Source of the DNA: an uncultured virus (IMG/VR IMGVR_UViG_3300013307_000019)
Taxonomy: Duplodnaviria; Heunggongvirae; Uroviricota; Caudoviricetes
IMG/VR virus record: IMGVR_UViG_3300013307_000019
Strand: one strand, 5' to 3'
DNA: 64,000 nucleotides
Shown here: in pieces, positions 33,474 to 48,337 of the stretch
How the letters are laid out: each line of letters opens with the position of its first letter
Numbering within the stretch: position 1 is the first letter of the stretch
The notes under the pieces: model-generated
Database searches by the model: none
The model's input: the letters and a program-made list of their open reading frames with translations, nothing else
What the model was told of the DNA's origin: nothing
Position numbers and translations under genes: made by a program

Positions 33474-33679
33474 CAGAAAATCTTCCGAAGGACCGGCCAG
33501 AATTCCTGTGGGAACTCATGGAAGCAATGCCTGTAGGTGCTTCTGTGAAAATCGCTGGGCCTGTCGCCACGGATGGTAGCACTTTCTACAAGGGTGAGGA
33601 CGGCCTGTGGCGCAGAAAGAACGAGGTTGCGGGCTGGATGCCACAGAACTTCACTGACAAGATTGTGCCGGTTCTTTGA
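33470..33679 (+). CDS. hypothetical protein
   Basis: ATGA overlap; GCCGTATA motif 7 nt upstream. Confidence 0.55.
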   Translation: MTENLPKDRPEFLWELMEAMPVGASVKIAGPVATDGSTFYKGEDGLWRRKNEVAGWMPQNFTDKIVPVL

Positions 33680-33864
33680 CTCATTACTCACGTGGACAGC
33701 AAGCACAAATCCGCAAGCGCATTCGACTTCGCGGAACTCACAACTTCACAGCCAAGGACAAGAAGTGCATCGCTTGCGGACACTTCTTCGGAGGGCCAGC
33801 CTGTATCCACACGGTTGAAGAGAATCAAGAAATTCTTCACCAGTTCGGGTTGACAACCGAATAA
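33676..33864 (+). CDS. small Cys/His protein
   Basis: TTGA overlap; CIACGH....C.H. Confidence 0.5.
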   Translation: MTHYSRGQQAQIRKRIRLRGTHNFTAKDKKCIACGHFFGGPACIHTVEENQEILHQFGLTTE

Positions 33865-33866
33865 CC

Positions 33867-33876
33867 GAGGCGTATA
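33867..33876 (+). promoter_or_regulatory. class II (phage-sigma) promoter motif heading the tRNA/ncRNA operon
   Basis: GAGGCGTATA; one of about 19 related copies in the window. Confidence 0.65.
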
Positions 33877-33973
33877 GTAGAGATATAACAACTTCACAGA
33901 CAGCGCGAAAAGTCGTCAGGGACTTCCACCACACAGAATGTGGTTAATCAGGCATTTAGACCGGATAGCGCTC

Positions 33974-34045
33974 GGGCCAGTCTCCGAGGTCTCCTTTCCT
34001 TGGTTGGTAGCTTACGGTTGGTAAATCCGGAGGCTGGCCCCTTTT
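33974..34045 (+). ncRNA. hairpin sRNA antisense to TACCAACC-SD leaders
   Basis: 13-bp stem 33974-33986/34028-34040; loop carries CTCCTTTCCTTGGTTGGTAG and a second GGTTGGTA. Confidence 0.65.
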
Positions 34046-34046
34046 C

Positions 34047-34128
34047 GCCCCCTTGGTGGAATGGAAGACACGGCAGATTCAAAACCTGCTACCTAAAGGG
34101 TGTGAGGGTTCAAGTCCCTCAGGGGGTA
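34047..34128 (+). tRNA. tRNA-Leu(CAA)
   Basis: Cloverleaf, long variable arm, GTTCAAGTCC. Confidence 0.9.
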
Positions 34129-34170
34129 CAAAGTCAAGTAGGGGGAAAGCAGAAGATAGCCCTACTGGCT

Positions 34171-34245
34171 GGATGGAGCGGCACTTTCAAGTAACTACTA
34201 AAAATAGTCGCTCACGCATCATCCGGCAAGAGGGCCGCTCCATCC
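34171..34245 (+). ncRNA. hairpin RNA with 12-bp perfect stem and 51-nt loop
   Basis: GGATGGAGCGGC / GCCGCTCCATCC. Confidence 0.45.
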
Positions 34246-34271
34246 GAAATTCATGTACGATAGTTGAATAT

Positions 34272-34343
34272 GCATCCTTGGTGTAAAGGTGAGCACAAGA
34301 GCTTCCAAACCTCTTAGAGTGGGTTCGAGTCCTACAGGATGTG
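34272..34343 (+). tRNA. tRNA-Trp(CCA)
   Basis: Cloverleaf; loop TTCCAAA; G73. Confidence 0.8.
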
Positions 34344-34368
34344 CGAGAAAATTGAATATAGACGGTGA

Positions 34369-34443
34369 CGCGGGGTAGGGCAGTTAGGTCAGCCCGCTAG
34401 GCTCATAACCTAGAGGCCGTGGGTTCGAATCCCACTCCCGCAA
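34369..34443 (+). tRNA. tRNA-fMet-like (CAT)
   Basis: CGCGGGG start with C1:A72 mismatch; CTCATAA loop. Confidence 0.88.
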
Positions 34444-34485
34444 CGAACCGGGCCACAAGGGTCCGGAATACTGTAAGGTAAGAGC

Positions 34486-34536
34486 ATGACGCATTTTGAG
34501 TACTACCCCGAACTGGAGGACCCAGTGTCGGCTTAG
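34486..34536 (+). other. leaderless uORF MTHFEYYPELEDPVSA ahead of a terminator-like hairpin
   Basis: TAAGGT-6nt-ATG; hairpin 34559-34589 follows. Confidence 0.35.
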
Positions 34537-34609
34537 TGCACCCAAAATGCAGTGCTCTAAGCCTCTTGACAGAAATGTTGGGAGGCTTTAGTCTTGGAAA
34601 AGACGACTA

Positions 34610-34629
34610 GAACTTTCAAAACTCCACAG
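34610..34629 (+). promoter_or_regulatory. boxA-like element
   Basis: GAACTTTCAAAACTCCACAG, 18/20 identical to 40131-40150. Confidence 0.5.
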
Positions 34630-34642
34630 AGGAACACTTAAT

Positions 34643-34717
34643 CGGGATGTAGCTCAGCTTGGCTAGAGCACTCGCTTTGGGAGCGAGGGGTCGCAGGTTC
34701 GAATCCTGTTATCCCGA
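34643..34717 (+). tRNA. tRNA-Pro(TGG)
   Basis: Canonical cloverleaf CGGGATG...TATCCCG A. Confidence 0.92.
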
Positions 34718-34720
34718 CTA

Positions 34721-34788
34721 GTGAGAGGCATGGGTTAGATTCCCATACGGCGACGAGCCGTTAGGCGTAAGTGTACAGCGCCGCTCAC
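34721..34788 (+). ncRNA. circularly permuted tRNA mimic (YrlA-like topology)
   Basis: Order: T arm, closed acceptor stem, TA, D arm; enclosed by GTGAG/CTCAC. Confidence 0.55.
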
Positions 34789-34793
34789 ATTAT

Positions 34794-34865
34794 CCGGTTG
34801 TCGCGTAAGGGTTAGCGCACTAGTTTTGGGAACTAGGGGACGGGTTTCGAGTACCTGCTATCGGA
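34794..34865 (+). tRNA. tRNA-Pro(TGG), divergent second copy
   Basis: CTAGT-TTTGGGA-ACTAG anticodon arm; TTCGAGT T loop. Confidence 0.75.
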
Positions 34866-34997
34866 CGAGAGAAGACAGTTGCTTTCAAATACGGAAGTGG
34901 ACACCTTCTCGTAAGGTCCCTCGCACGAGGGTTCCGGAGAGTGGCCAGTTACGTGGCTGAAGTACATGTGCCAGGAGGTAGGAGCTTGTACACTTAT

Positions 34998-35073
34998 GGT
35001 GTTGTGGTAGACGTTGGTTGTCTAGCTTAGACTGTGAATCTGAGTCTCACGGGTTCAATTCCCGTACATCACC
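34998..35073 (+). tRNA. tRNA-His(GTG)
   Basis: G-1:C73; CTGTGAA loop. Confidence 0.88.
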
Positions 35074-35127
35074 CGCGAGCGTAAGTTGCCGGTAAAATAG
35101 GCCTTTGGGAACTATGAACCGGACCAT

Positions 35128-35202
35128 GCGGATGTGGGGGAGTTTGGAGTCCCCGCCACCCTGTCAAGGTGGAGAACGCGGGTTCAAATCCCGTCTTTCG
35201 CG
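35128..35202 (+). tRNA. tRNA-Asp(GTC)
   Basis: CCACC-CTGTCAA-GGTGG; G73. Confidence 0.9.
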
Positions 35203-35243
35203 CGCAAGTTGACAATCGCCTCAAAGAGGCGTACAAATGATTT

Positions 35244-36033
35244 ACGGGCTTGGCCGATAAGGTACCGCGAGGTACTGAAAGATGGGACGACAACCCATCG
35301 CCATGAAAATGGTAACCCAAGCAATCCGAGTGATTCACTGGTCAGGAGCCAAACACCTGGCCAGCGTCATTCAAGTCACCTGAAGCTCCTCAGGGCCAAC
35401 CGGCGAGAGGAGGCCACCAGTAACGTGCTGTGTGGACAAGGGTTAGACGAGATTGAGGTTCATGAGGAAGGAATAGTAGTCCGAGCCGGTCAAGCAAGGG
35501 CGGATTCCATGAATGACAGAAGTACTGGATCGGCGGGTTCAGGGGAATGTCAGGAGAGATACAAGTAGCCCGACAGCAAAAGTATCCGAGGGTGTGTAGT
35601 ATTCTGGGCCTCAAAAGGGTTCGGAGCTACGCGAGTAAGCACATCCTCCGTCAATAACCGCATCATTAGCTCATTTGGCAGAGCGACTGTATTGGGAACA
35701 GTAGGTAGCTGGTTCAAACCCAGCATGTTTATGCAAAACAAAATCGAAAGACTTACTCAGTCTGGCGTGAAAGTGCCTTAACCCTCGGGCCGTCAGGTAA
35801 CCGAGGCACGGGAAGACTCGAAAGGTCCAACGTGTTGATAGGAAAGTAGCAGGAGTGTAGGGGCTTAGCGGCTCTTCCACGGTTGCAAAATCCGTCGAGT
35901 AATTCCAGACTTAAGGAAGTGGTCAGACCTAAACTGACCAGGCATGACAAGTACGGTGGCGACATCGTGGAGAAGTTGGGAACCAATAATCCAACGAAAG
36001 CTTGTTACGAAAGGCATACTCTCAGCCTTATCA
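35244..36033 (+). ncRNA. large structured RNA, probably GOLLD-type
   Basis: ~790 nt without a credible ORF; ends pair (GATAAGGT 35256-63 / GCCTTATC 36025-32); many hairpins; internal tRNA-like element; flanked by tRNAs. Confidence 0.65.
35660..35735 (+). tRNA. degenerate tRNA-Pro(TGG)-like element inside the large RNA
   Basis: D, anticodon (ACTGT-ATTGGGA-ACAGT) and T arms intact; acceptor stem has a TTT bulge. Confidence 0.6.
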
Positions 36034-36063
36034 CCCTCCGGGGCTTCGAAACCCCCGGAATTT

Positions 36064-36135
36064 GCTCTCATCGTTTAGTGGTTAGGACGCCAGCCTCTCA
36101 CGCTGGTAGCACGGGTTCGAATCCCGTTGGGAGTA
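36064..36135 (+). tRNA. tRNA-Glu(CTC)
   Basis: CCAGC-CTCTCAC-GCTGG. Confidence 0.9.
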
Positions 36136-36246
36136 CGATTCGGTCAACCGCACGCCTCCAACTGCCGGTGGTCACTAGTCGAAAAAGTAGGTGGGGTAGA
36201 CGCAGAAACTCTTGTCTGGGGGGTTCCGAATCAAAACCAGACACTT

Positions 36247-36321
36247 GCTCTCATCGTTTAGTGGTTAGGACGCTGGCCTTTCAAGCCGGTAGCACGGGTT
36301 CGAGTCCCGTTGGGAGTACCA
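36247..36321 (+). tRNA. tRNA-Glu(TTC)
   Basis: Near-duplicate of the preceding tRNA; encoded CCA. Confidence 0.92.
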
Positions 36322-36392
36322 GAGGACGTGTTGTGACGGCGGCACGTTGAAAAAAGGTAGCCCTTTCACACGGGAGCCGAGTCGTCCCATAT

Positions 36393-36475
36393 GCCGTAGC
36401 GCCGAAGTTGGAGAGTCGGGGCGGTCTGTAAAACCGTTGCCATTGGCTGAGTGAGTTCGAATCTCACATGCGGTA
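36393..36475 (+). tRNA. tRNA-Tyr(GTA)
   Basis: CTGTAAA loop, long variable arm. Confidence 0.88.
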
Positions 36476-36605
36476 CAACTACATTCCTGGTCTTTTTCCG
36501 CCAGGGGTGGAAGCGAGATAAGGAAAAGTGACTCTCGCACATGTCCTGGTCAGTACACTGGGGGGCTTTAGGGTCTCCTGGGACGTAAAAAGGACCAACC
36601 AATAC

Positions 36606-36683
36606 GGCACCTTAGCTCAGTTGTGGTATTAGAGCGGTGGATTGAAAACCCACAGGTCACCGGTTCGACTCCGGTAGGTGTCA
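36606..36683 (+). tRNA. tRNA-Phe(GAA)
   Basis: TTGAAAA loop, cloverleaf. Confidence 0.9.
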
Positions 36684-36901
36684 CGCAGGAAGACGCTAGC
36701 CTTCCTAATCCGTACAGACGCCGTAGGCGCGCTAGGGTACTGTCTAGTACGGGTCTCCATAACCGGTCGAGGCAATGACACGGAGGGGGAGTCTTGTGCG
36801 GAGGCGCACAGAGTCTTAAAGGTTTGAGAAGCGCTGTCGCCAGTTGCAGATACGGACCAAGTAGGGCTTTGTACGCTGACCAATCAAGCTCCCCCGCATA
36901 T

Positions 36902-36983
36902 GGCTTCTTGGTGGAATTGGTATACACGCTGGTCTTAGGAACCAGTGCCGCAAGGCATAAGAGTTCGAGTCTCTTAGGAGCTA
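36902..36983 (+). tRNA. tRNA-Leu(TAG)
   Basis: CTGGT-CTTAGGA-ACCAG, variable arm. Confidence 0.9.
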
Positions 36984-37087
36984 CGTCGTAAAAGGAATAT
37001 GTAACTTGTTATCGGGTACCCGCTGTAGCTGAGACAAGCCCTATCCCGGAGGACCCTAATCAGCGGTGGGTTCTCCACGAACACTTT

Positions 37088-37170
37088 GCACGTATGGTGA
37101 AATGGTAGACACGCCAGCTTGAGGGGCTGGTGCCCGCAAGGGCGTGCTGGTTCGAGTCCAGTTATGTGCA
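37088..37170 (+). tRNA. tRNA-Leu(GAG)
   Basis: CCAGC-TTGAGGG-GCTGG, variable arm. Confidence 0.9.
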
Positions 37171-37199
37171 CGCGAAAGTAGTGTTGTATACTGAGCACC

Positions 37200-37234
37200 G
37201 CCCCCGGTCACTGCAAATGGCCGGGGGTTTTCTT
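37200..37234 (+). terminator. intrinsic terminator ending the first tRNA block
   Basis: CCCCCGGTCA / TGGCCGGGGG plus TTTTCTT. Confidence 0.8.
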
Positions 37235-37317
37235 GTTTCTGGGGTTTGACAACCGTATAGTCTTACGTATAGGGTAATTGCAGGCACAGAGAGTGCCGCT
37301 AATTGAAGGAGAAACAT

Positions 37318-37524
37318 ATGAAGCAGAAGATTCTTGCCGGTCTCGCTACCGCGGGCATCGTCACGGCCCTCGTGTTCGTTGGAGCCGCTGAGGCCAACGC
37401 AAAGACGACCGTGCCGGTTCCCAACCCCACCGCACCGATTGTGACCCCGGACGAGGCTCACTCGCTTCTTCCCTCTCCATACGGCACGGGTACCGTTTGG
37501 GGAGGAACGCCCTGGACTCCGTAA
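37318..37524 (+). CDS. small secreted protein
   Basis: Signal peptide (MKQKILAGL...AEANA); TTGACA promoter at 37246; SD AAGGAG. Confidence 0.65.
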   Translation: MKQKILAGLATAGIVTALVFVGAAEANAKTTVPVPNPTAPIVTPDEAHSLLPSPYGTGTVWGGTPWTP

Positions 37525-37538
37525 GCTCCTAGACATCA

Positions 37539-37569
37539 ACCCCTGGTCCTCTGTGACCAGGGGTTTTTG
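37539..37569 (+). terminator. intrinsic terminator
   Basis: ACCCCTGGTC / GACCAGGGGT plus TTTT. Confidence 0.8.
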
Positions 37570-37644
37570 CTTTTGTGGGCTATGAGGCGTAAAGAAAAGG
37601 TATGCTGGAAGGAATAGTGCCAGCCATTACCCAAGGAGTTCCAA

Positions 37645-37881
37645 GTGTCAAGGTTGAGTGAAAGACTCAAGGAAGCCAAGAATCCAACCAAGAAGTCGAA
37701 TATGGACCTCTGGCTGGAATCCCTCTCTGACGAGGACCGCAAGGCCGTTCTGGACGCCGCAAAGGACGAGAACCTCAAGAACTACACGCTTTACGGAATC
37801 CTCCGTCAGGAGGGCTTGAAGGTCTCTAAGGATACCTTTATCAAGTGGCGTGACGCACAACTGGGAGTGATGGTCGTATGA
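37645..37881 (+). CDS. small helical protein (possible DNA-binding)
   Basis: SD AAGGAG; coupled to the phosphoesterase. Confidence 0.65.
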   Translation: MSRLSERLKEAKNPTKKSNMDLWLESLSDEDRKAVLDAAKDENLKNYTLYGILRQEGLKVSKDTFIKWRDAQLGVMVV

Positions 37882-39089
37882 GCCTGTCAGACGCGCTAGA
37901 CGCCGCTAAGACGAAAGCACTCGCCGCTATCAAGGCAGACGAGGAAATCATCTACACGTCGGACGGCGAAGTTCTGTCCGCAAGTCTCATGATGGCTTCC
38001 GCCTGGGGCGAGGATGACTGGAAGGCCTGGCTAGAACTGAAGGGCACCAACCCTGAGGAAGTCACCTTCACCTTCGGTGTGACGAGCAACCCTAACGGCG
38101 GCTACTGGAACAAGCTCCTCAACGTCAAGTACACGAACAAGATTTTGGGTGACGAGGTTCCCGCTTGGCCCGTCATTCAGCCTTCGCGTAAGCAGTACAA
38201 GATTACGCCGGTAGTGCGGAGCCGCAAGAACTCCAAGTTCAAGACCGCCGTAGTCGGGGCTGACACGCAGATTGGGTTCGACATGGACCCACAGGGCAAC
38301 CTCACGCCGTACCACGATGACGCGGCCATGGACATCTTCAGTCAGATTGTCCAGATGGAGGACCCGGACGTTACTGCGCTCGCAGGAGACATCATTGACC
38401 TGACCGAGCAGGGCCGGTGGGTGCAGGAAGCAAGATTTGCTCACACGACCCAGCCTTCTCTTGACCGCACACGCGAATTCGCCGCAGACCTGAGAGCCAG
38501 GACTTCCGGCAAAATCATCTTTATCGAGGGAAACCACGACAAGCGGTTCCAAGGCTTCATGGAAGCCAACGCCAAGAGCGCCATGGGACTCAAGAAGGCA
38601 GGCTACCCAGACTCCTGGCCCGTCATGAGCGTGCCAAATCTTGTCGGTCTGGATGACTTCGACATCGAGTACATCGACGCCTATCCCGCAGGGGCTTACT
38701 GGCTCACCAACGACCTCAGAATCATCCACGGCACCAAGAGCGTGTCCAAGGGTTCTACGGCCTCTCAGTACGCCAACGAGACTCCTCACCTATCAACGAT
38801 CTTCGGGCACAGCCACAGGCTAGAAGTTCAGAGCAAGACAATCTTCGACCGAGCCGGAAAGATTCGGACGATGAACGTAAACCCCGGCTGTCTGTGTCGA
38901 GTTGACGGCATGGTTCCCGGAGTTCACGGAGCACGCCACCTAGACGGATCAAAAGCTACGTACTGGGAGAACTGGCAACAGGGCGTGACAGTGGTAAGGT
39001 TCAAGGAGAGCGGAGAGTTCTTCGTAGAACTGATTCAGATTGACGACGGCGTAGCGTTCCACCTGGGACAAGAATTGAGAGCATCATGA
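37878..39089 (+). CDS. calcineurin-like metallophosphoesterase
   Basis: D.Q, GDIID, GNHD, HG, GHSH motifs. Confidence 0.85.
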   Translation: MSLSDALDAAKTKALAAIKADEEIIYTSDGEVLSASLMMASAWGEDDWKAWLELKGTNPEEVTFTFGVTSNPNGGYWNKLLNVKYTNKILGDEVPAWPVIQPSRKQYKITPVVRSRKNSKFKTAVVGADTQIGFDMDPQGNLTPYHDDAAMDIFSQIVQMEDPDVTALAGDIIDLTEQGRWVQEARFAHTTQPSLDRTREFAADLRARTSGKIIFIEGNHDKRFQGFMEANAKSAMGLKKAGYPDSWPVMSVPNLVGLDDFDIEYIDAYPAGAYWLTNDLRIIHGTKSVSKGSTASQYANETPHLSTIFGHSHRLEVQSKTIFDRAGKIRTMNVNPGCLCRVDGMVPGVHGARHLDGSKATYWENWQQGVTVVRFKESGEFFVELIQIDDGVAFHLGQELRAS

Positions 39090-39394
39090 CTGACGAGAAG
39101 AAGCCGCTCCTTAGCGGAGACTACGGGCTTACCCTGACCTACCTCAACGAAGACCTCGCATGGGGCATGAAGGTGTGGCGCGAGAACGGGATTCCTGTGT
39201 ACCTCTACGAGGTTCACTACCGCGACGACGAGCACCCGGAGCCTATCTATGTCCGCGAGAAGATGGTAGGAGACCCAGAGGGCGCAACCAACTCTAGCGA
39301 AATGACGGTGGTACCCAGCCTGGTGAAGCGTCTGGTTCTTCTTCTCACAGATGAGGACTTCAGAAACAAGCTTCGAGTTCTTGGTTCCGACTGA
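39086..39394 (+). CDS. hypothetical protein
   Basis: ATGA overlap. Confidence 0.6.
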   Translation: MTDEKKPLLSGDYGLTLTYLNEDLAWGMKVWRENGIPVYLYEVHYRDDEHPEPIYVREKMVGDPEGATNSSEMTVVPSLVKRLVLLLTDEDFRNKLRVLGSD

Positions 39395-39438
39395 CCTAAG
39401 GCGTATATCTAAATAATCGCTCGGGAAGGGGAACTACC

Positions 39439-39594
39439 ATGAGAGCAACATTCGATGATGAGGTTAACGCCTACCACTTCAGTTCTGAGGAGCTTCGTCC
39501 GGGCGAGGTAGTGAAGACTATCAACCTGGGTTCTCGCAACGTAGTACTGGATATCGACCGCAATGGCCGCATCGTGGGTGTAGAGGTTTTCTGA
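39439..39594 (+). CDS. DUF2283-like small protein (51 aa)
   Basis: MRATFDDEVNAYH...VVLDIDRNGRIVGVEV pattern. Confidence 0.65.
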   Translation: MRATFDDEVNAYHFSSEELRPGEVVKTINLGSRNVVLDIDRNGRIVGVEVF

Positions 39595-39620
39595 TGTCTA
39601 CAACTACCGATAGTAAGTCT

Positions 39621-39905
39621 ATGGATGCCGTTGTAGACCCGGCGCTTGAAGCCGAAATCGAAGAAGTATCGGTCACGGAACTCCCCGCCGTGGGACAGTT
39701 CGTCGCGTGCGAGGCCTGCCCGCACACGGACCACGTAGGGAAGCCGTGGGGACTCCGGTCCTACATGTTCTTCTACTTCAAGGACGGCCTCTTGGCCTAC
39801 TGCAAGCACCACGGAGAAATCTTCCAAGAGAAGCTTGAAGAGGCTGGCGGCATCCTGGTTATGGACACGCGGTACCTCCTCATCGAGAACCGCCTCAAGG
39901 ATTAG
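39621..39905 (+). CDS. Zn-binding hypothetical protein
   Basis: CEAC...L.YCKHHG; ATG 6 nt after CGATAGT. Confidence 0.6.
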   Translation: MDAVVDPALEAEIEEVSVTELPAVGQFVACEACPHTDHVGKPWGLRSYMFFYFKDGLLAYCKHHGEIFQEKLEEAGGILVMDTRYLLIENRLKD

Positions 39906-39941
39906 TGGCCACGTGCCAGATTTTAGTGTATAGTGGATGTC

Positions 39942-40013
39942 ATGAGTATTCAGTCAACGAATCAGAAGCGCGGAGCGACCATCGTCGTATCCGGCGCTGA
40001 GAGGCGTACCTGA
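39942..40013 (+). other. leaderless uORF MSIQSTNQKRGATIVVSGAERRT ahead of a terminator
   Basis: TATAGT-7nt-ATG; terminator 40036-40078 follows. Confidence 0.45.
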
Positions 40014-40035
40014 AGACTTAGAACCAGTCTACTAG

Positions 40036-40078
40036 GAGCCTCTGAAAGCAAAAAAGTTTTCAGAGGCTCTTGCTTTTC
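40036..40078 (+). terminator. terminator/attenuator hairpin
   Basis: GAGCCTCTGAAAG / TTTTCAGAGGCTC plus TTGCTTTT. Confidence 0.65.
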
Positions 40079-40130
40079 CTCCGAGAAAGGCGTAAGTTTT
40101 AGACATCAGCCACCTACGGGTGAGCAACAA

Positions 40131-40150
40131 GAACTTTGAGAACTCCACAG
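40131..40150 (+). promoter_or_regulatory. boxA-like element
   Basis: GAACTTTGAGAACTCCACAG, resembling actinobacterial rrn leader TTTGAGAACTCAA.AG; short hairpin upstream. Confidence 0.55.
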
Positions 40151-40223
40151 TGGAAATCCGAGCGGGACAGTAGTCCGGGCCTGAGCCAAGAAAGCTTTCA
40201 GGTACAACTAGTCTGCCCGCATT

Positions 40224-40313
40224 GGTGATGTGGCCGAGAGGCTTATGGCGCTCGCTTGGAAAGCGAGTAGAGTAGTGACCCTACTCTCGCAGGTTCAAAT
40301 CCTGTCATCACCG
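40224..40313 (+). tRNA. tRNA-Ser(GGA)
   Basis: Long variable arm, G73. Confidence 0.92.
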
Positions 40314-40391
40314 CGCGTATAAGGGACTCGTATGCCGAGGGCAACTACATCGGTTGTGCCAACCATATGGCGGGTTGGCCCTTATACCTAT

Positions 40392-40476
40392 GGAGATATG
40401 GTCGAGAGGCTTATGGCATCTGTTTCGAAAGCAGACGTACCGGAAGGTACCGGGGGTTCAAATCCCTCTATCTCCG
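40392..40476 (+). tRNA. tRNA-Ser(CGA)
   Basis: Long variable arm, G73. Confidence 0.92.
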
Positions 40477-40526
40477 CAGGGTCAGGGGTGTAGTGACGAC
40501 CGTGTTGTTGCATCTACTGACCATTT

Positions 40527-40612
40527 GGTGGGTTGGCAGAGAGGCTTATTGCGTCACTCTTGAAAAGTGAAAGTACCGGAAGGTACCGGGGGTTCAAATC
40601 CCTCACCCATCG
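40527..40612 (+). tRNA. tRNA-Ser(TGA)
   Basis: Long variable arm, G73. Confidence 0.92.
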
Positions 40613-40690
40613 CAATGCAAACCGCCCCTGCGGGGGTATGGAGCAGAAATCCAGTTACTAGTGCTGGTACGGTAGTGCGTACGACTGCCG

Positions 40691-40766
40691 AGGACAGTAG
40701 TATAGTGGCCGATTACCCCGCACCTTAACAATGCGGTAACGCGGGTTCAAATCCCGCCACGTCCTG
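40691..40766 (+). tRNA. atypical tRNA with 9-nt anticodon loop (identity undetermined)
   Basis: CCGCA-CCTTAACAA-TGCGG; GCGGG-TTCAAAT-CCCGC; bulged acceptor stem. Confidence 0.6.
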
Positions 40767-40769
40767 AAT

Positions 40770-40856
40770 GGTGATATGGCCGAGAGGCTTATGGCTCAAC
40801 TTTGCTAAAGTTGCGTAGCAGAAATGCTACCGGGGGTTCGAATCCCTCTATCACCG
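40770..40856 (+). tRNA. tRNA-Ser(GCT)
   Basis: CAACT-TTGCTAA-AGTTG, variable arm. Confidence 0.92.
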
Positions 40857-40987
40857 CAATTGGGTTCTCGATAAGCCATTAGGCAATCGTAGGGATGAGT
40901 AGGGTGGCTCCCTACAACACGGTCCTGGTGAGGCGCAGATGCGGCTCAAGCTTCCGAAGCCCAGCCAGTGGAGGGAAGTCGTTTTTT

Positions 40988-41060
40988 GGGTCCATCGTAT
41001 AACGGTTGATTACTGCTGACTCTTACTCAGTTAATCAGGGTTCGATTCCCTGTGGGCCTA
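40988..41060 (+). tRNA. tRNA-Lys(CTT)
   Basis: GCTGA-CTCTTAC-TCAGT. Confidence 0.85.
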
Positions 41061-41061
41061 C

Positions 41062-41176
41062 GAGGGAAGCAAATTGGGAGCGCAGTCAAGTCGGGCGAGC
41101 GGTTGCAAACGCGGACTTATGACCCGGTAGCGTCATGAACTACCGCGCGACTGCCTGGGTTCGAGTCCCAGCCCTT
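41062..41176 (+). ncRNA. tRNA-like RNA with T arm, no D stem and an internal pseudoknot
   Basis: CTGGG-TTCGAGT-CCCAG; GCAGTC/GACTGC arm; ATGAC/GTCAT plus CGGTAG/CTACCG pseudoknot. Confidence 0.5.
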
Positions 41177-41232
41177 AAACACTTGGCCGAAAAGGTCACA
41201 GCGGGGAGTATAGTTGTAGTGGAGGAACTACC

Positions 41233-41958
41233 ATGACAACTACCCCGGACGTGAAGGTTATTACCGTCCAACAGAAAAGCCCGCTACTTGGTCGTAATGT
41301 TGTTCACGACCCGCGTAGCCGAGCTTTCCCCCTACTACTTTCTTCCCCGGTGGACAAGTCCACTTGGAAGAACAAGGTAATTCGTGTCTACGACCCAACT
41401 CCTAATCCCAACCAGGAAATTGGATGTTGCACCGGAGTTGCGAAGTGCATCCAGCTAAATTCGGCTGGAAACCGGGTGAGCAAGAGATTTCTCACTTTCC
41501 GCGTGGGAAGCCGCGTCCTGAACATGTCGGACGCTGTGAAGCTGTACTCTCGTGCTACGGAGATTGACCCGTATGACGGTACCTACCCTCCTACGGACAC
41601 CGGTTCCTCTAGCCTAGCTTCGTGCAAGTCCGCACAAGACTTTGGTATCGCAGGAGCGTACAACTGGATTTTTGGTGGCGCTGACGAGGTAGTTCAGAAC
41701 ATCATGCAGGGTCGCACAATCTCAGTGGGAACCTGGTGGTACGAGGGCATGTTCAACAAGGATTCCAAGGGACGAATTAGGCCCACGGGAGAGAAGGTTG
41801 GCGGTCACCAATGGGCGGTACGCGGATACGATGTAGACCGTGATTGGGTCATGGGTCGGTGCTGGTGGGGAGACTTCCGAGACTTCTGGATTGCCCGCAC
41901 AGACCTTCAGTCCCTTCTCTTGGACGATGGGGATGCACATTTCCAGAAGTCCATTTAA
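41233..41958 (+). CDS. papain-like cysteine protease domain protein
   Basis: NQ.IG.CTG (oxyanion Q, catalytic C), GGHQ...GYD, WG. Confidence 0.7.
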   Translation: MTTTPDVKVITVQQKSPLLGRNVVHDPRSRAFPLLLSSPVDKSTWKNKVIRVYDPTPNPNQEIGCCTGVAKCIQLNSAGNRVSKRFLTFRVGSRVLNMSDAVKLYSRATEIDPYDGTYPPTDTGSSSLASCKSAQDFGIAGAYNWIFGGADEVVQNIMQGRTISVGTWWYEGMFNKDSKGRIRPTGEKVGGHQWAVRGYDVDRDWVMGRCWWGDFRDFWIARTDLQSLLLDDGDAHFQKSI

Positions 41959-42013
41959 GTAAACCAGAGATTTGCGAACTAGCGGGGTTGCTCTTAAACT
42001 AACTCCCTGCCAC

Positions 42014-42084
42014 GGGCTATTGGTGAAGAGGTATCACAAGACACTTCCAATGTTTTATCGCGGGTTCGATTCCCGCATAGCCCT
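42014..42084 (+). tRNA. tRNA-Gly(TCC)
   Basis: CTTCCAA loop, U73. Confidence 0.9.
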
Positions 42085-42258
42085 CAGCGGTCACTTGAAG
42101 GATGGACAAGTATCAATCTCCAGAGGCGATTGTTAGGACTCCTATATCCTAAGCAACTAGGACAGTGACAGTAGCTCGGGAAGGTTGCAATTCCATGGGG
42201 CTACGGCGAATCCCATCGTCAAATGCAATACCCCGGGCACACGGGGTAACGGGAATTT

Positions 42259-42329
42259 GGGATATTGATGTAATGGTAGCCTACGACCTTGCCATGGTTG
42301 TCGCGCGGGTTCGATTCCCGCATATCCCT
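42259..42329 (+). tRNA. tRNA-Gly(GCC)
   Basis: TTGCCAT loop, U73. Confidence 0.88.
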
Positions 42330-42514
42330 CTGGAATTCTAGTGAGTCAAACAGCGTGAAAAGTAGAGTCACTTTCTCCCCCTGTTGGGTGGGCATCGCTA
42401 ACCGGTTATTCACGGTGCACGTTGAAGGCGTACTGGGGTTTTTAAAACGGTTCTCTACTACCGCCTCCTTTCGGCCCTGTAGCGGACGACCTGCTCATTA
42501 CGAATTCCTACCCT

Positions 42515-42588
42515 GCCCTTATAGCTCCAACGGCTAGAGCGCTTCACTTGTAATGAAGATGTTGTGGGTTCGAATCCTACTGGGGGCA
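42515..42588 (+). tRNA. tRNA-Thr(TGT)
   Basis: CTTCA-CTTGTAA-TGAAG. Confidence 0.92.
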
Positions 42589-42750
42589 CGCTTTGACAGA
42601 GGCCGTCCGAAAAAAGGTTCGCACTAGGACGTTAAACAGAGACAAACCAGGAACCTTGCGGGGCGTAAACAGTTCCCCAAGACCCGAAGCGGCTTTCGTA
42701 TTCGAAGAGTCATGGATAGACGCAGTGAAGCTGTTAGGTCTCACCAATTA

Positions 42751-42824
42751 GCCCGATTCGCTTAGTGGTAAAGCGGCTGTTTCGTAATCAGCAACCGTCA
42801 GTTCGATTCTGGCATTGGGCACCA
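42751..42824 (+). tRNA. tRNA-Thr(CGT)
   Basis: TTCGTAA loop; encoded CCA. Confidence 0.9.
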
Positions 42825-42825
42825 A

Positions 42826-42901
42826 GCCTCCATAGCTCCAATTGGTTAGAGCGCATCCTTGGTATGGATGAGGATTCTGGGTTCGAGTCCCAGTGGTGGC
42901 A
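42826..42901 (+). tRNA. tRNA-Thr(GGT)
   Basis: CATCC-TTGGTAT-GGATG. Confidence 0.9.
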
Positions 42902-43029
42902 CGGGGGAAAGTAACGGGTGGTGCCGACTTCGAGAATCTGGAAGTAAGCGCACGTATTCTAGATACTACGTGTGATAGGTAAGGCATAAGTTCTCTACCA
43001 ACCTGAAAAGGACGAGAAACCCCCACCAA

Positions 43030-43102
43030 CGTTGCGTAGCCAAGTGGGAAGGCGCTGGCTTCATAATCCAGTCACGAGTGAGTTCGATTCTCACCGCAAC
43101 GA
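43030..43102 (+). tRNA. tRNA-Met(CAT) (elongator or Ile2)
   Basis: TTCATAA loop; paired 1-72. Confidence 0.82.
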
Positions 43103-43108
43103 CAGTAC

Positions 43109-43182
43109 GCCGCGTAGGCCGATTGGTGAGAGGCACCAAGCTTATATCTTGGGAAATGTAGGTTCAATTCCTACACGCGGTA
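43109..43182 (+). tRNA. tRNA-Ile(TAT)
   Basis: CCAAG-CTTATAT-CTTGG; A73. Confidence 0.8.
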
Positions 43183-43271
43183 CGGCGGGAGACCATGAAC
43201 CCCATCATGGGCAGACGTAGTGAGGTCGCAATGACAAGTCTGTAGCTGACTGGGTAACAGCGCCGCAATTT

Positions 43272-43345
43272 GGTCATGTAGCTCAGTAGGTTAGAGCGCT
43301 ATCTCGACACGGTAGAGGCCAAGAGTTCGAATCTCTTCTTGACCA
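43272..43345 (+). tRNA. tRNA-Val(GAC)
   Basis: CTATC-TCGACAC-GGTAG (C at position 33). Confidence 0.85.
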
Positions 43346-43348
43346 CAG

Positions 43349-43377
43349 TTGACACAGGCTGAAGTAGCACGTATACT
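43349..43377 (+). promoter_or_regulatory. host sigmaA-type promoter (class I)
   Basis: TTGACA-17-TATACT; TACCAACCAA leader. Confidence 0.8.
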
Positions 43378-43411
43378 TAAAGTACCAACCAACGAGAGGA
43401 CGGTACAGAAA

Positions 43412-43927
43412 ATGCCTTGTCGATACGACCCCACGGAAGCGGAGATTGAAGCGGCCCGTGAGAAGAAGTTCGCCCTTCAGACCAAGCCCATGCGCGAAGC
43501 GCTGGATAGGCTGACACACGAGAACGATGTTCTCCGGGAAGCACTTCTGGCTCTCCGTCCTTACACTCTTGTCAAGACACTGAGTGGAATCATCAAAAAG
43601 GTGGACGACGATCAGTGGTCCAACATTTTCGATGAGGAGCGCGATCAGATTGTAGGAGCGTTTGAGGCCTACCTGGAAGAGCTTGGCATCCCTAGCGATG
43701 TTTGGGACAAGATTCAGGAGGATCAGGTAGAGCACCGCAAGGAAGACCTTCGTCGTCTTGAGAAGACCTTCAACGATAAGCTGGCAGACCTGTACAAGTC
43801 CGGTCGCCGCTGGGACGGATTCAAAGAGGAACGCAACACACTCTTTGACCGTCTTCGTAAAGTTGAAGAGGCGGACCCGGATAAGCCCCTTGCGCCTCAG
43901 TTGGGTTTTGATCCCGACGACTTCTAA
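43412..43927 (+). CDS. hypothetical protein
   Basis: MPCRYDP start, helical; own promoter. Confidence 0.7.
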   Translation: MPCRYDPTEAEIEAAREKKFALQTKPMREALDRLTHENDVLREALLALRPYTLVKTLSGIIKKVDDDQWSNIFDEERDQIVGAFEAYLEELGIPSDVWDKIQEDQVEHRKEDLRRLEKTFNDKLADLYKSGRRWDGFKEERNTLFDRLRKVEEADPDKPLAPQLGFDPDDF

Positions 43928-43991
43928 GAACTTGAAGCGGTCCTAGTAACCGCTCGTTACAGGTTAGCCACCTGTTCAAGAAAACGGCTAC

Positions 43992-44063
43992 GCCCCGGTC
44001 ATTCAACGGCAAGGATTCCTGTTTTACACACAGGTCATGTGGGTTCGATTCCCGCCTGGGGTA
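43992..44063 (+). tRNA. tRNA-Val(TAC)
   Basis: CCTGT-TTTACAC-ACAGG. Confidence 0.88.
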
Positions 44064-44219
44064 CGAGGAACAATGTAACTACTCTACGCAACCTCATAAA
44101 CGCAGAAGGAGTAGACGGTGGGAAAGCCCTGTAATGGGACTCCGGAAAAGTCCGTAAAGCTTTTCCCAATTGACATGACAGCCAGTTATGGACGCTATAA
44201 TCGGAAAAGGAGGTCCATC

Positions 44220-44693
44220 ATGTCAGGGTATGTAGAACTGTACAATCAGGGTGGCACCGAGTTTCTGAAGAGAGTGTCCCTGAAGCACGCCATGCAAATG
44301 ATTTGGCGTGGAGTAGCGCGCGCCATCGAGACCGATGGTTCCTTCAACACGTCCCACGGTGCCTTCGAGCGCCCAAAGACTCTTGAATTGGTCCGCTACA
44401 TCTACACAAAGTGGCGGTATGAGAAGAAGGTTGACGCAACCGTAACTAGAAACCGGATTCTTAAGCGGGACAAGCACATCTGTGCATACTGCGGAGTCTC
44501 CGGTGCCAACACAATTGACCACATCCAGCCTAAGTCACGGGGTGGAGAAGATTCTTGGTTGAACTTGGTAACGGCTTGCTTGAAGTGTAACAACCTCAAG
44601 GACGACCGGACTCCTAAGGAAGCCCGTATGAAGCTTAAGTACGAGCCAAGAGTTCCTTCGTTCGCGGAGGTCTACTCTTGGGGACGTACCTGA
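44220..44693 (+). CDS. HNH endonuclease
   Basis: ILKRD...CAYCG...TIDHIQPKSRGG..SW.NLVTAC..CN..K. Confidence 0.9.
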   Translation: MSGYVELYNQGGTEFLKRVSLKHAMQMIWRGVARAIETDGSFNTSHGAFERPKTLELVRYIYTKWRYEKKVDATVTRNRILKRDKHICAYCGVSGANTIDHIQPKSRGGEDSWLNLVTACLKCNNLKDDRTPKEARMKLKYEPRVPSFAEVYSWGRT

Positions 44694-44731
44694 GTGAGTG
44701 ACCTGAGACATGTCACGAAACTGTCTCACAT

Positions 44732-44803
44732 TGGATTGTAGTGTAATTGGCAACACGGCTGGCTGTTACCCAGCTATTTAAGGTTCGAATCCTTACATTC
44801 CAG
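44732..44803 (+). tRNA. tRNA-Asn(GTT)
   Basis: GCTGG-CTGTTAC-CCAGC; U1-A72, G73. Confidence 0.85.
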
Positions 44804-44906
44804 CGCAGGTTAGCAGAAACCATCCGAAATGCGCACGGACAGGTCTGCTAAGCCTCCCGTTTAGTCGGGCGTGCCGAGGGCCACGATACAAAAGCCCTCT
44901 CCTTAT

Positions 44907-44979
44907 TCCTCCGTAGCTCAGTTGGTAGAGTGGGTGACTGTTAATCACTTGGTCGTTGGTTCGAGTCCAGCCGGGGGAG
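44907..44979 (+). tRNA. tRNA-Asn(GTT)
   Basis: Canonical TCCTCCG...CTGTTAA. Confidence 0.92.
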
Positions 44980-45033
44980 CGCAAAACTGAAGAGTTTCTT
45001 GAAAACCACCAATCAGAGGCGTAAAGATACAAC

Positions 45034-46101
45034 ATGACCTACTACCTTCGGCAAGGTGACATGTTCTCGGTGACATCCGAGAGTGCCATTGACCTTCACA
45101 AGATTCTTCCGGCATGGACGTTCACCGTTGGTCAGAATCCCATGACCGGCGCGTTCTACCTGCAACGTGTCAAGGATTACGTGTTCAAGAACAAGATTTA
45201 CGGCGACACGCTCCGGAACACCCAACGCATCCTCAGCACCTTCGACCTTCGTGCGAACGCCACGGGCGTGATGCTCACCGGCGAGCAGGGTTCGGGAAAG
45301 ACTCTTCTGGCCACCATGCTCAGCATTGTAGGCCGCGAGGAGGGCATTCCCACCATCGTTATCAACGAGCCGTGGCACGGGGAAGGCTTCAACGCTTTCA
45401 TCCAGAGCATCGAGCAGAAGGCTATCGTCATCTTCGATGAGTTCGAGAAGGTGTACGACAAGGAGACTCAGGAGAAGATGCTCACGCTCTTCGACGGGGT
45501 TTACCCGAGCAAGAAGCTCTTCATCATCACGTGCAACGACAAGTACCGCGTGAACGACCACATGAAGAATCGGCCAGGAAGATTCTTCTACCGCCTTGAG
45601 TTCAAGGGACTCGAATCTGAGTTCATCGAGGAGTACTGTCAGGACAACCTTGAGAACAAGGACTACATCGACAGCATTTGTCGCATCGCCCTCCTCTTCG
45701 GGGAGTTCACCTTCGACATGCTCAAGGCCATGGTCGAGGAAATGAACCGCTACGGCGAGTCTCCTCAGGAAGTCATGAAGGTTCTGAACGCCAAGCCTGA
45801 GTACTCCGAGTCGGTTCCCTACGACATCGTTCTCGCAGTGAACGGCAAGCGCATCCCAGAGTCCAAGCTGTACAACCCCACGTGGACCGGCAACCCACTC
45901 AGCGGTACCCTGAAGATCATGTACCAGGGCAAGCCAGACAAGGACGGGGACTGGGAGTACGTGCAACAGAAGTTCACGACTGAAGACCTGAAGAACATCG
46001 ATACAGAGTCGGGGAAGTTCATCTTCGACAATGGCAAGGGTGCACAGCTTTCTCTTCAGAAGAAGAAGCCAGTTCACTCCAACTGGGAAGTCCTGGTCTG
46101 A
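45034..46101 (+). CDS. AAA+ ATPase
   Basis: GEQGSGKT, FDEFEK, TCN, NRPGR. Confidence 0.88.
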   Translation: MTYYLRQGDMFSVTSESAIDLHKILPAWTFTVGQNPMTGAFYLQRVKDYVFKNKIYGDTLRNTQRILSTFDLRANATGVMLTGEQGSGKTLLATMLSIVGREEGIPTIVINEPWHGEGFNAFIQSIEQKAIVIFDEFEKVYDKETQEKMLTLFDGVYPSKKLFIITCNDKYRVNDHMKNRPGRFFYRLEFKGLESEFIEEYCQDNLENKDYIDSICRIALLFGEFTFDMLKAMVEEMNRYGESPQEVMKVLNAKPEYSESVPYDIVLAVNGKRIPESKLYNPTWTGNPLSGTLKIMYQGKPDKDGDWEYVQQKFTTEDLKNIDTESGKFIFDNGKGAQLSLQKKKPVHSNWEVLV

Positions 46102-46145
46102 CAAGAAATTCAGGGGCGCGTCTGAATGAGAACAACGCGCACTTT

Positions 46146-46217
46146 GCCTCTATGGTCCAAAGGATATGACACCGGTCTACGGAACCGGGGATGGGGGTTC
46201 GATTCCCTCTAGGGGTA
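46146..46217 (+). tRNA. tRNA-Arg(ACG)
   Basis: CCGGT-CTACGGA-ACCGG. Confidence 0.9.
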
Positions 46218-46256
46218 CGGGCAAAAGTAAGAGCCTACGACGTAGAATGGAAGTAC

Positions 46257-46329
46257 GCCTTGATAGTTCAGCGGAGAGAATAGCAGTTTCCTAAACTGTC
46301 GGTCGCGGGTTCGAATCCCGCTCAGGGCA
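46257..46329 (+). tRNA. tRNA-Arg(CCT)
   Basis: GCAGT-TTCCTAA-ACTGT. Confidence 0.9.
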
Positions 46330-46382
46330 CTTGCCTTAGGATGGGCAACTCCTGAGCATGAGAATAAACTGCTCACTCATAT

Positions 46383-46455
46383 TCCCTGTTGGTGTAAATG
46401 GCTAACACGACTGACTCTGACTCAGTTATTTTTGGTTCGAATCCAGAGCGGGGAG
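46383..46455 (+). tRNA. tRNA-Gln(CTG)
   Basis: ACTGA-CTCTGAC-TCAGT; U1-A72. Confidence 0.9.
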
Positions 46456-46509
46456 CGAGGTTGGAAAACCAACACAGGCCGCGTGCCGCTGTGTAAAGCT
46501 TCCACATAT

Positions 46510-46580
46510 TCTGGAATCGTTTAATGGTAGGACGACAGTCTTTGGAACTGTCTATGTTGGTTCGAATCCAGCTTCCAGAG
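46510..46580 (+). tRNA. tRNA-Gln(TTG)
   Basis: ACAGT-CTTTGGA-ACTGT. Confidence 0.9.
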
Positions 46581-46603
46581 CGACAAACAAGAAGGGCAGT
46601 ACC

Positions 46604-46780
46604 ATGAACACGGATATTCACCAGGACGACAGGTTTGTTTCCCTCAAGGGCGACAGAACCGTAAGAGTGGTAGTTGTGGACTCCCTTGGTGAGCGGTACC
46701 AGATTGAGAACGAGGCAACAGGCCGCAAGACCTGGACTACCGCCGACAAGCTCTTCAGGAATTACGCTCCACTTATTTGA
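46604..46780 (+). CDS. small hypothetical protein (58 aa)
   Basis: SD-like AAGGG; MNTDIHQDDRFVSLKGDRTVRVVVVD... Confidence 0.5.
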   Translation: MNTDIHQDDRFVSLKGDRTVRVVVVDSLGERYQIENEATGRKTWTTADKLFRNYAPLI

Positions 46781-46872
46781 TCTACGCAATACCGGACGTG
46801 CACAGAGGGTATTGTATGCCGCAGGGTGAGTGCGGTTCATCGGGTCCTCATCGAATTAGACCCGATTTATTC

Positions 46873-46946
46873 GTCCACGTAGTTCAACAGGACAGAACAT
46901 CAGTCTCCGACACTGAAGGTTAGGGGTTCGAATCCCCTTGTGGACA
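46873..46946 (+). tRNA. tRNA-Arg(CCG)
   Basis: TCAGT-CTCCGAC-ACTGA. Confidence 0.88.
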
Positions 46947-46947
46947 C

Positions 46948-47172
46948 ATGGAAGAAAAAGAAGATTATCCCTGCCCACACGACGAACACAGCATCGACAT
47001 CGGAGTCTCTATCGGCAAATACGATGCTTGGCGTGAAGCACAAGCCGCTTTCGACAAGGGTGAGATTGAGCTTTGGTTGGACTACAACCGGCCCAAGACT
47101 CTTGAGGCTTGGAAAGAGTGGAGAGAGCTTCACGGCTCTCACGAGGACATGGAAGCTCGCTGGAAGGACTAG
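46948..47172 (+). CDS. hypothetical protein
   Basis: ATG immediately after the tRNA 3' end. Confidence 0.45.
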   Translation: MEEKEDYPCPHDEHSIDIGVSIGKYDAWREAQAAFDKGEIELWLDYNRPKTLEAWKEWRELHGSHEDMEARWKD

Positions 47173-47173
47173 A

Positions 47174-47467: not shown

Positions 47468-47530
47468 TTTAACGGTAAAACCGCAGACTTTTAATCTGTC
47501 AGAGTGTGGGTTCGAATCCCACGGGGCCTA
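47458..47530 (+). tRNA. tRNA-Lys(TTT)
   Basis: GCAGA-CTTTTAA-TCTGT. Confidence 0.9.
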
Positions 47531-47545
47531 CGCGATAGTAAACGT

Positions 47546-48324: not shown

Positions 48325-48337
48325 AGTAAAAGAAAAT

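Follow-up and report, generated by a model that had tools for sequence, protein, structure and literature searches.

A GOLLD RNA gene in the tRNA array of an uncultivated tailed phage, with an embedded tRNA-like module whose acceptor stem is damaged

GOLLD is among the few natural RNAs known to build a protein-free cage. Here we investigate a member of this family in a 64,000-nucleotide (nt) stretch of viral DNA (IMG/VR record IMGVR_UViG_3300013307_000019, Caudoviricetes; hereafter the window, meaning the whole stretch), in which a preliminary description made from the sequence had placed a giant RNA of about 790 nt containing a tRNA-Pro with a broken acceptor stem. The locus raises the question of what a tRNA-like element does inside such an RNA, namely whether it is a tRNA to be released, a site at which the RNA is cut or a lasting part of the RNA. 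Our analyses identify the interval from about 35245 to 36028 on the plus strand as the GOLLD RNA gene of an uncultivated tailed phage, whose host is probably an actinobacterium. Taken together, they lead us to favour, with a probability of roughly 0.7, the reading that this GOLLD RNA has a built-in, non-decoding pseudo-tRNA with a damaged acceptor and is mostly kept in one piece. This kind of arrangement, a GOLLD with a damaged tRNA look-alike in a tRNA array, has already been described in mycobacteria; what is added here is the damage to the acceptor throughout a clade that keeps the D and T arms, an anticodon arm exchanged as a whole even among near relatives, and a picture of the RNA in metatranscriptomes.

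A GOLLD RNA with two covarying domains

The Rfam scan of the whole window matched the GOLLD covariance model (RF02032) at 35587-36028 (+) over its full length (model positions 1-416 of 416) with 220.7 bits (E 3.8e-61), the gathering score in Rfam being 150 bits. This was the sole large non-tRNA match reported, and ROOL (RF03087) gave no match in the window at its gathering score. The motifs that had first suggested the family, GTAGTATTC...CTCAAAAGG (35596-35618) and CTCTCAGCC (36019-36027), are both in place and lie within the best-conserved parts of the Rfam GOLLD alignment. Hence, the family proposed in the preliminary description is borne out, and so are the size (about 785 nt in total, 5' domain plus 3' domain), the setting in a phage (virion and replication genes) with tRNA-Asp and tRNA-Glu on either side, and the density of hairpins: the minimum free energy of the 790-nt region is -267.7 kcal/mol compared with -243.1 +/- 8.5 kcal/mol in shuffles (z -2.88), and none of the 20 shuffles equals it. 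Searched by blastn against GenBank phages, the sequence matched two records, each over 75 nt at a tRNA gene only, and the match to Mycobacterium phage Rey was confined to the tRNA stretch.

Relatives were collected by pattern scans of public collections and by blastn of a plasmid collection. The closest, L122 (the same locus as L032), is 76% identical to the window over 870 nt and shows the same order His-Asp-GOLLD-Glu-Glu-Tyr. In the 340 nt upstream of the Rfam match, an nhmmer profile built from six clade sequences found full-length matches outside the profile at L057 (E 3.9e-31), L035 (6e-22) and L029 (1.1e-19), and RNAalifold, run on nine sequences over 35247-35586, predicted 50 pairs in 11 helices. 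Of the aligned cells 91.5% are paired, compared with 76.9% in shuffles; 29 of the 50 pairs are changed on both sides, compared with 16.0 +/- 2.3 in shuffles (0 of 500 reach 29), and sliding the partners by 1-3 columns lowers the pairing to 34-46%, figures to be read with the fact that the structure was derived from the very alignment on which it was tested, which favours it somewhat. These 340 nt are thus a covarying, non-coding GOLLD 5' domain shared with eight other GOLLD loci.

The same stretch overlaps an open reading frame of 144 codons (35134-35568), and a region encoding a protein, through this frame or through those of the opposite strand, was the alternative to be weighed here. The frame is open in the window; however, it begins within tRNA-Asp, it is closed in all eight homologues, whose forward frames each carry two or more stops, and the indels separating the window from L122 are 1 or 2 nt long. 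Moreover, none of four open reading frames tested in the region, this one included, has a Pfam match, and the conservation is accounted for by base-pair covariation. We therefore give the protein-coding alternative practically no weight; 35247-35586 is RNA.

Covariation is likewise present in the 3' domain. Among six clade sequences, 94 of 175 predicted pairs are changed on both sides, and RNAalifold also pairs the pseudoknot stretches (columns 561-571 with 706-716), all 10 pairs being doubly changed in at least one of the six. The first hairpin of the domain is identical to that of L122 at 54 of 63 bases, and the terminal hairpin reads GGC/GCC in the window and GGA/TCC in L122. The paired ends noted earlier (35256-63/36025-32) do pair in the window sequence, with eight pairs including one G.U, and they appear in the single-sequence minimum free energy fold, but they are not a conserved helix: only 50% of the homologue cells pair, 334 of 500 shuffles equal this, and 36025-27 belong to the terminal hairpin instead. 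The two domains, moreover, do not share one history in all relatives. Between L122 and L138, the 3' domain, the linker module and the tail hairpin are 100% identical and the 5' domains only 287/342 (83.9%), so that the two domains seem, as far as their sequences tell, to be exchanged or to evolve separately.

A tRNA-like module kept without a proper acceptor stem

Within the variable linker lies the tRNA-like element, the 5' half of which reads GCATCAT TA GCTC ATTTGGCA GAGC G ACTGT ATTGGGA ACAGT and the 3' half, after the anticodon arm, AGGTA GCTGG TTCAAAC CCAGC ATG TTT ATGC A. The Rfam tRNA model recognises it (35664-35727, 42.7 bits, model positions 5-66 only), and ARAGORN makes no tRNA call there, even at a relaxed threshold. 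The loops are canonical (GG in the D loop, TTCAAAC in the T loop, an anticodon loop of 7 nt), and over six aligned rows, one of which is the phage's own tRNA-Pro, the arms pair at 95.8% (D), 96.7% (anticodon) and 90.0% (T), with all five pairs of the anticodon stem changed on both sides. The acceptor stem is different: it consists of four pairs, a TTT bulge in the 3' strand and three further pairs, and if the bulge is ignored only 4 of 7 positions pair. Thus, the element lacks the continuous seven-pair acceptor stem of a functional tRNA, and no CCA is encoded at its 3' end. Its presence and its TTT-bulged acceptor, both described earlier, are confirmed by the Rfam match, the covarying arms and the RNA contigs considered below.

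Comparison with L122 revealed an uneven pattern of conservation. The acceptor 5' strand together with the D arm is identical at 24 of 26 positions (92%) and the acceptor 3' strand with its TTT at 11 of 11, the anticodon arm at only 5 of 17 (29%), and the remaining RNA at about 70-73%. The anticodon arm of L122, ATTCC CTCTAAC GGAAT, presents the anticodon CTA (L122 713-775, likewise in L138), which would read the amber stop codon. Across the set the anticodons are TGG in the window, CTA in L122 and L138, CAA in L132, TTG in L123 and TGA in L035; they do not show the conservation among orthologues expected of a functional tRNA. The name tRNA-Pro therefore holds for the window copy, with its TGG, but not as a conserved identity. 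Nor did the anticodon loop reveal a partner elsewhere in the RNA: in the window, L122, L138 and L132 no complementary 6- or 7-mers were found, and 5-mer complements lie at unrelated columns, with none in L132.

The other relatives show the module present, altered or lost. L138 carries it as L122 does. At the same Asp-Glu site it is present in L132 and absent from L131, and L124, which lies in other surroundings, has two small remnant hairpins only. Among the loci with homologous 5' domains (L057, L035 and L029), L035 and L029 have three arms and no acceptor stem. The element is also present in L123, a more distant GOLLD (Rfam 191.7 bits), in degenerate form in L133, a remoter locus that looks GOLLD-like by eye, and in L167, the GOLLD of plasmid pCBMA213_1 of Mycolicibacterium sp. 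CBMA 213 (Rfam 196.7 bits). The acceptor carries the TTT bulge in the window, L122 and L138, a one-A bulge and a G.U pair in L133, an outer four-pair helix with an internal loop in the irregular L123, and seven pairs, three of them G.U, in L132; in L167 it has 4 pairs only and the anticodon loop has 8 nt. A clean Watson-Crick stem of seven pairs occurs in none of the seven lineages carrying the element. Hence, in a clade in which the module comes and goes at one syntenic site, the acceptor is always damaged and the anticodon arm changes fastest.

Since the acceptor is interrupted by a conserved TTT bulge and the anticodon is not conserved, the element would, judged by its sequence, be a non-decoding pseudo-tRNA module and not a tRNA-Pro gene. 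We read it as a tRNA-derived module apparently kept for its shape rather than for decoding, with an acceptor stem that decays or is selected against. Alternatively, the cage could store a functional tRNA-Pro(UGG) and let it go when needed, an idea stated in the accessible parts of PMC12990946 and PMC12286853 and consistent here with the canonical loops, the TGG anticodon and the 72% identity to the phage tRNA-Pro(tgg) at 34643, its closest match. We nevertheless consider storage very improbable, given the bulged acceptor that ARAGORN does not accept, the anticodons CTA and CAA in the closest relatives, the existence of L131 without any element, and the two ordinary tRNA-Pro(tgg) genes that ARAGORN finds in the phage array about 900 nt upstream.

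The module is rare in this position. ARAGORN found a linker tRNA in 0 of 44 viral GOLLD loci, these being the loci with enough flank, recognised by a regular expression for the first hairpin, among 77 (the remaining 33 were not assessed by this test). A covariance model of the element, run on 80 of 120 viral GOLLD loci, matched the linker in 3, namely L032 by construction and, weakly (E 0.12), L035 and L029, and a scan of viral contigs for the T arm with the ATGTT..TG strand returned 20 loci, with GOLLD on the L032 contig only. The pattern GTAGTATTC-N5-CTCAAAAGG gave 12 matches in metagenome contigs, which comprise the new clade members L131, L132 and L138, the distant L133, three duplicates of known loci (L128, L135, L137) and five matches judged by eye to be due to chance (L127, L129, L130, L134, L136). 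In genome contigs all eight matches to the pattern appeared by eye, without an Rfam run, to be chance, the GOLLD sequence not continuing beyond them.

Expression, ends and integrity of the RNA

At least one third of the sampled words of the stretch was found in two DNA and five RNA runs, all from rhizosphere samples; the RNA runs share one year and one habitat and may belong to one campaign. Four of the RNA runs were mapped as contigs on 33500-37500 of the window. Run X3 gave a 5' contig at 35254-35680 (depth 37.4) and a 3' contig at 35712-36013 (depth 10.4), X4 contigs at 35255-35661 (27.3) and 35708-36013 (11.4), X5 contigs at 35254-35633 (41.7) and 35732-36013 (11.6), and X7 a 5' contig at 35255-35661 (6.0) with no 3' contig; such contigs do not reveal where the RNA truly ends, nor its strand or level. 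In all four runs GOLLD alone is covered within the 4 kb, at depths of 6-42. GOLLD is made as RNA, and DNA carry-over does not account for the signal, as the coding DNA at both ends has zero depth. All four runs carry G>T at 35457 and therefore derive from a near-identical strain. The TTT stretch itself is covered in X3 (from 35712) and X4 (from 35708), with no difference from the window listed. Stretches without contig cover are 35204-35253, which holds the promoter-like sequence and the first helix strand, 35681-35707, and 36014-36063, with the terminal hairpin and the additional hairpin after it, although contigs cannot show absence.

Several observations weigh against an RNA kept in one piece around a disabled tRNA. 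No contig in any of the four runs spans 35681-35707, which holds the 3' strand of the D stem, the anticodon arm and the variable loop; the 5' contigs stop at 35633-35680 and the 3' contigs begin at 35708-35732, with no loose ends reported. In all three runs that have both pieces, the depth of the 5' piece exceeds that of the 3' piece by a factor of 2.4-3.6, which a single intact RNA does not predict, and the 5' contigs of X4 and X7 end at 35661, two bases beyond the expected cut of ribonuclease P (RNase P). In addition, ARAGORN calls the embedded elements of L132 and L123 as tRNAs, and a consensus scan of three loci calls no promoter at 35209-35237, nor in L122 or L132. Finally, the cage, the position of the linker in it and the resistance to RNase P are carried over from what holds for other GOLLDs or for tRNA processing in general.

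Part of this would be explained if the element were a cutting site, the 5' and 3' domains existing mainly as two RNAs of different stability and possibly assembling non-covalently. RNase P recognises the D and T arms of tRNA, both intact here, and the break inside the element in four of four runs, the excess of the 5' piece and the contig ends beside the canonical RNase P site would fit such cutting. However, the X3 contigs enter the element on both sides, by 21 nt up to 35680 and by 24 nt from 35712 on, so that at least some molecules are uncut at the tRNA ends and cutting exactly there is at least incomplete. Read loss over a tightly folded or modified tRNA core could equally account for the break and the depth gap, so that they neither prove nor exclude cutting. 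Given this, along with the degraded acceptor stems across the clade and the M. aubagnense GOLLD, for which the accessible part of PMC6582537 records no pseudo-tRNA product, we hold cutting at the element to be an unlikely, though sizeable, alternative.

The deeper 5' half could also be ascribed to a weak internal terminator, formed by the T-arm hairpin and the U-rich ATGTTTATG, that would yield an excess of 5' fragments and for which the TTT would be conserved. A scan calls the site terminator-like in the window, L122 and L132, yet such calls are no commoner than in shuffles (3 found, 4.0 expected), and the stem has 5 pairs only. Moreover, the 5' contigs stop 45-95 nt ahead of the site, and L167, L123 and L035 have no U tract there, which leaves termination scarcely credible.

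As to the start of the RNA, the promoter-like TTGACA-17-TAnnnn, whose spacer in the window contains the hairpin CGCCTC AAA GAGGCG, recurs in L122, L138 and L132, with the variant TTGACA-17-CAAGAT in L131, and is absent from the upstream sequences of L124, L057, L035 and L029. Thus, of the proposed promoter of its own, the TTGACA at 35209 and its recurrence in relatives stand, though no consensus call accompanies them, and a promoter at 35209-35237 is plausible. The same consensus scan marked a promoter-like site at 33850-33878, before the tRNA array, and a terminator-like site at 37200-37228. In L035 and L029 a tRNA lies just upstream of GOLLD, and these viral contigs of about 84 kb also hold a transfer-messenger RNA gene (RF00023) a few hundred bases upstream of it (L029 1-247, L035 1-112).

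At the other end, the GC-rich hairpin at 36037-36059 has an identical stem in L122 and L138; in L132 (CCCTCG...CGAGGG) both strands differ and yet still pair. In the window, tRNA-Glu begins 5 nt after this hairpin. In 15 of 80 viral GOLLD loci, the GOLLD 3' end is followed, after no more than about 5-10 nt, by a tRNA-model match on the same strand, which fits a 3' end formed by 5' processing of a tRNA.

Returning to the reading of an intact RNA with a built-in pseudo-tRNA, we propose the following course of events. Transcription most likely starts from the promoter at about 35209-35237, and processing at the downstream tRNA-Glu most likely defines the 3' end; an RNase P cut there would yield such an end. 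The resulting RNA would comprise the covarying 5' domain, the variable linker and the conserved 3' domain, and by homology with two solved GOLLDs 12-14 copies would be expected to assemble into an RNA-only cage with the linker inside. The linker would hold a degenerate tRNA descendant whose D, anticodon and T arms are presumably kept by selection. It is plausible, by analogy with tRNA processing, that the TTT bulge blocks excision, as the preliminary description had suggested, and such a block agrees with an acceptor stem that is no longer proper anywhere in the clade; since the damaged acceptor would make a poor substrate for RNase P and 3' processing, most of the element probably remains covalently part of the RNA.

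Possibly, each cage would then display a dozen or more copies of a permanently tethered, acceptor-disabled tRNA mimic that acts as a decoy or sponge, a suggestion we regard as doubtful and largely speculative. If it were true, the conserved elbow of D and T loops with a wholesale-swapped anticodon arm would fit a decoy for host proteins that bind or cut tRNA anticodon loops, such as the anticodon nucleases and VapC-type toxins that are common in actinobacteria, and the same pattern would fit a sponge for tRNA-modifying enzymes; either way an arms race would drive the evolution of the anticodon arm.

Coordinates in the window of the GOLLD gene, its parts and its immediate neighbours
Feature	Position	Strand	Basis
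tRNA-Asp(gtc), upstream neighbour	35128-35203	+	ARAGORN; Rfam tRNA 55.1 bits
Promoter-like TTGACA (35209-35214), 17 nt, TACAAA (35232-35237)	35209-35237	+	read from sequence
GOLLD 5' (variable) domain	35247-35586	+	nhmmer and covariation
Closing helix of 5' domain	35248-53/35317-22	+	within 35247-35586
First hairpin of conserved 3' domain, GUAUUC...CUCAAAAG apex	35587-35649	+	Rfam model positions 1-62
Variable GOLLD linker	35650-35758	+	unpaired Rfam model region, 45-nt insert
Embedded tRNA-like element	35660-35735	+	Rfam tRNA 42.7 bits; covarying arms
Element, acceptor 5' strand GCATCAT	35660-66	+	sequence
Element, D arm	35669-84	+	sequence
Element, anticodon arm (anticodon TGG 35693-95, loop ATTGGGA)	35686-35702	+	sequence
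Element, T arm	35708-24	+	sequence
Element, acceptor 3' strand: ATG, TTT bulge, ATGC	35725-27, 35728-30, 35731-34	+	sequence
Pseudoknot 5' strand (partner 35902-35911)	35759-35768	+	Rfam alignment brackets
Conserved GOLLD 3' domain core	35759-36028	+	RF02032 alignment; covariation on six sequences
Terminal hairpin, UCUCA loop	36013-15/36025-27	+	Rfam alignment and covariation
Clade-specific hairpin TCCGGGG CTTCGAAAC CCCCGGA, between GOLLD end and tRNA-Glu	36037-36059	+	comparison
tRNA-Glu(ctc), downstream neighbour	36064-36136	+	ARAGORN; Rfam 62.4 bits

Genomic setting and comparison with known systems

The proteins encoded in the window include a tape measure and tail proteins, helicases including DnaB, a primase, a DNA polymerase, a UvsX-like recombinase and an endolysin. 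The phage is distantly similar to Microbacterium phage Magritte, whose DNA polymerase is the nearest to its own (43% of residues identical over 81% of the query), and the order of the Magritte tRNA genes (Leu, Trp, Pro, Asp, Glu, Glu, Tyr...) matches that of the window; the Asp-Glu interval of Magritte measures only 20 bp. The two phages thus differ by insertion or deletion of the GOLLD gene at a syntenic position in their tRNA arrays, and tRNA-Asp is its upstream neighbour also in L122, L138, L131 and L132. From 34047 to 48843, ARAGORN lists 39 tRNA genes, every one on the plus strand. Since the list lacks the Rfam tRNA at 36606-36683 (+; 58.5 bits), which by eye is a tRNA-Phe(GAA), has a long D loop of 13 nt and takes the position of tRNA-Phe in L122 and Magritte, the array has at least 40; ARAGORN likewise makes no call at 40692-40765, where Rfam finds a weak tRNA (34.5 bits).

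Two further observations concern neighbouring genes. In Magritte (L121), a gene annotated as a Ro-like RNA-binding protein (39068-40699) directly follows the tRNA array. In the window, a Pistol ribozyme match (RF02679; 55453-55521, +) scores 48.7 bits, the gathering score being 34.5; some 200 nt downstream of it begins the open reading frame 55722-56891, which is nicotinamide phosphoribosyltransferase-like.

Compared with GOLLD RF02032 as a family, the RNA of the window agrees in its full-length model match, its size of about 785 nt, its conserved 3' and variable 5' domains with a linker between them, its phage origin and its place among tRNA genes. It differs in being far in sequence from all GenBank phage records searched, in its apparent own promoter and the extra hairpin after its 3' end, and in the tRNA-like insert, a feature of the linker in just 3 of the 80 viral loci searched. 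The solved GOLLDs are the env-38 14-mer and the 12-mer RNA from Streptococcus agalactiae (PMC12286853 and PMC12990946, in their accessible parts), and in the 14-mer cage, as far as the accessible text of PMC12286853 goes, the variable linker, though not resolved in the structure, is located in the interior and sometimes contains tRNAs. ROOL, too, is a large RNA of phages located near tRNA islands, and the RNA-only cage that it forms encloses a disordered linker (PMC12286853, same part), whereas its sequence and fold are unrelated.

The nearest parallels are mycobacterial. The portion of PMC12990946 available to us describes a Mycolicibacterium GOLLD with tRNA-Phe in the linker and suggests that the cage might withhold the tRNA from maturation; that of PMC6582537 places the M. 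aubagnense GOLLD in a cluster of 32 tRNAs and reports that it contains a pseudo-tRNA with no separate northern signal. With these GOLLDs, L167 included, the window shares the actinobacterial setting, the tRNAs on both sides and an element in the same linker, and its pseudo-tRNA module is as reported for Mycobacterium GOLLDs. L167 (69% similarity over 31% of the query) has a nearly alike D arm (TAGCTCAACTGGCAGAGC in the window against TAGCTCATTTGGCAGAGC), a TTCAAAY T loop and a defective acceptor; it differs in its plain 4-bp acceptor and 8-nt anticodon loop, compared with 4 bp, TTT and 3 bp and a 7-nt loop in the window. Unlike the plasmid or chromosomal arrays of the Mycobacterium type, the copy described here stands in a phage with virion genes. 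Beyond these parallels, the rhizosphere metatranscriptomes provide natural expression data for a GOLLD and a hint of RNA discontinuity through the module, which, together with the clade pattern, argue against the simple reading of tRNA storage in a cage.

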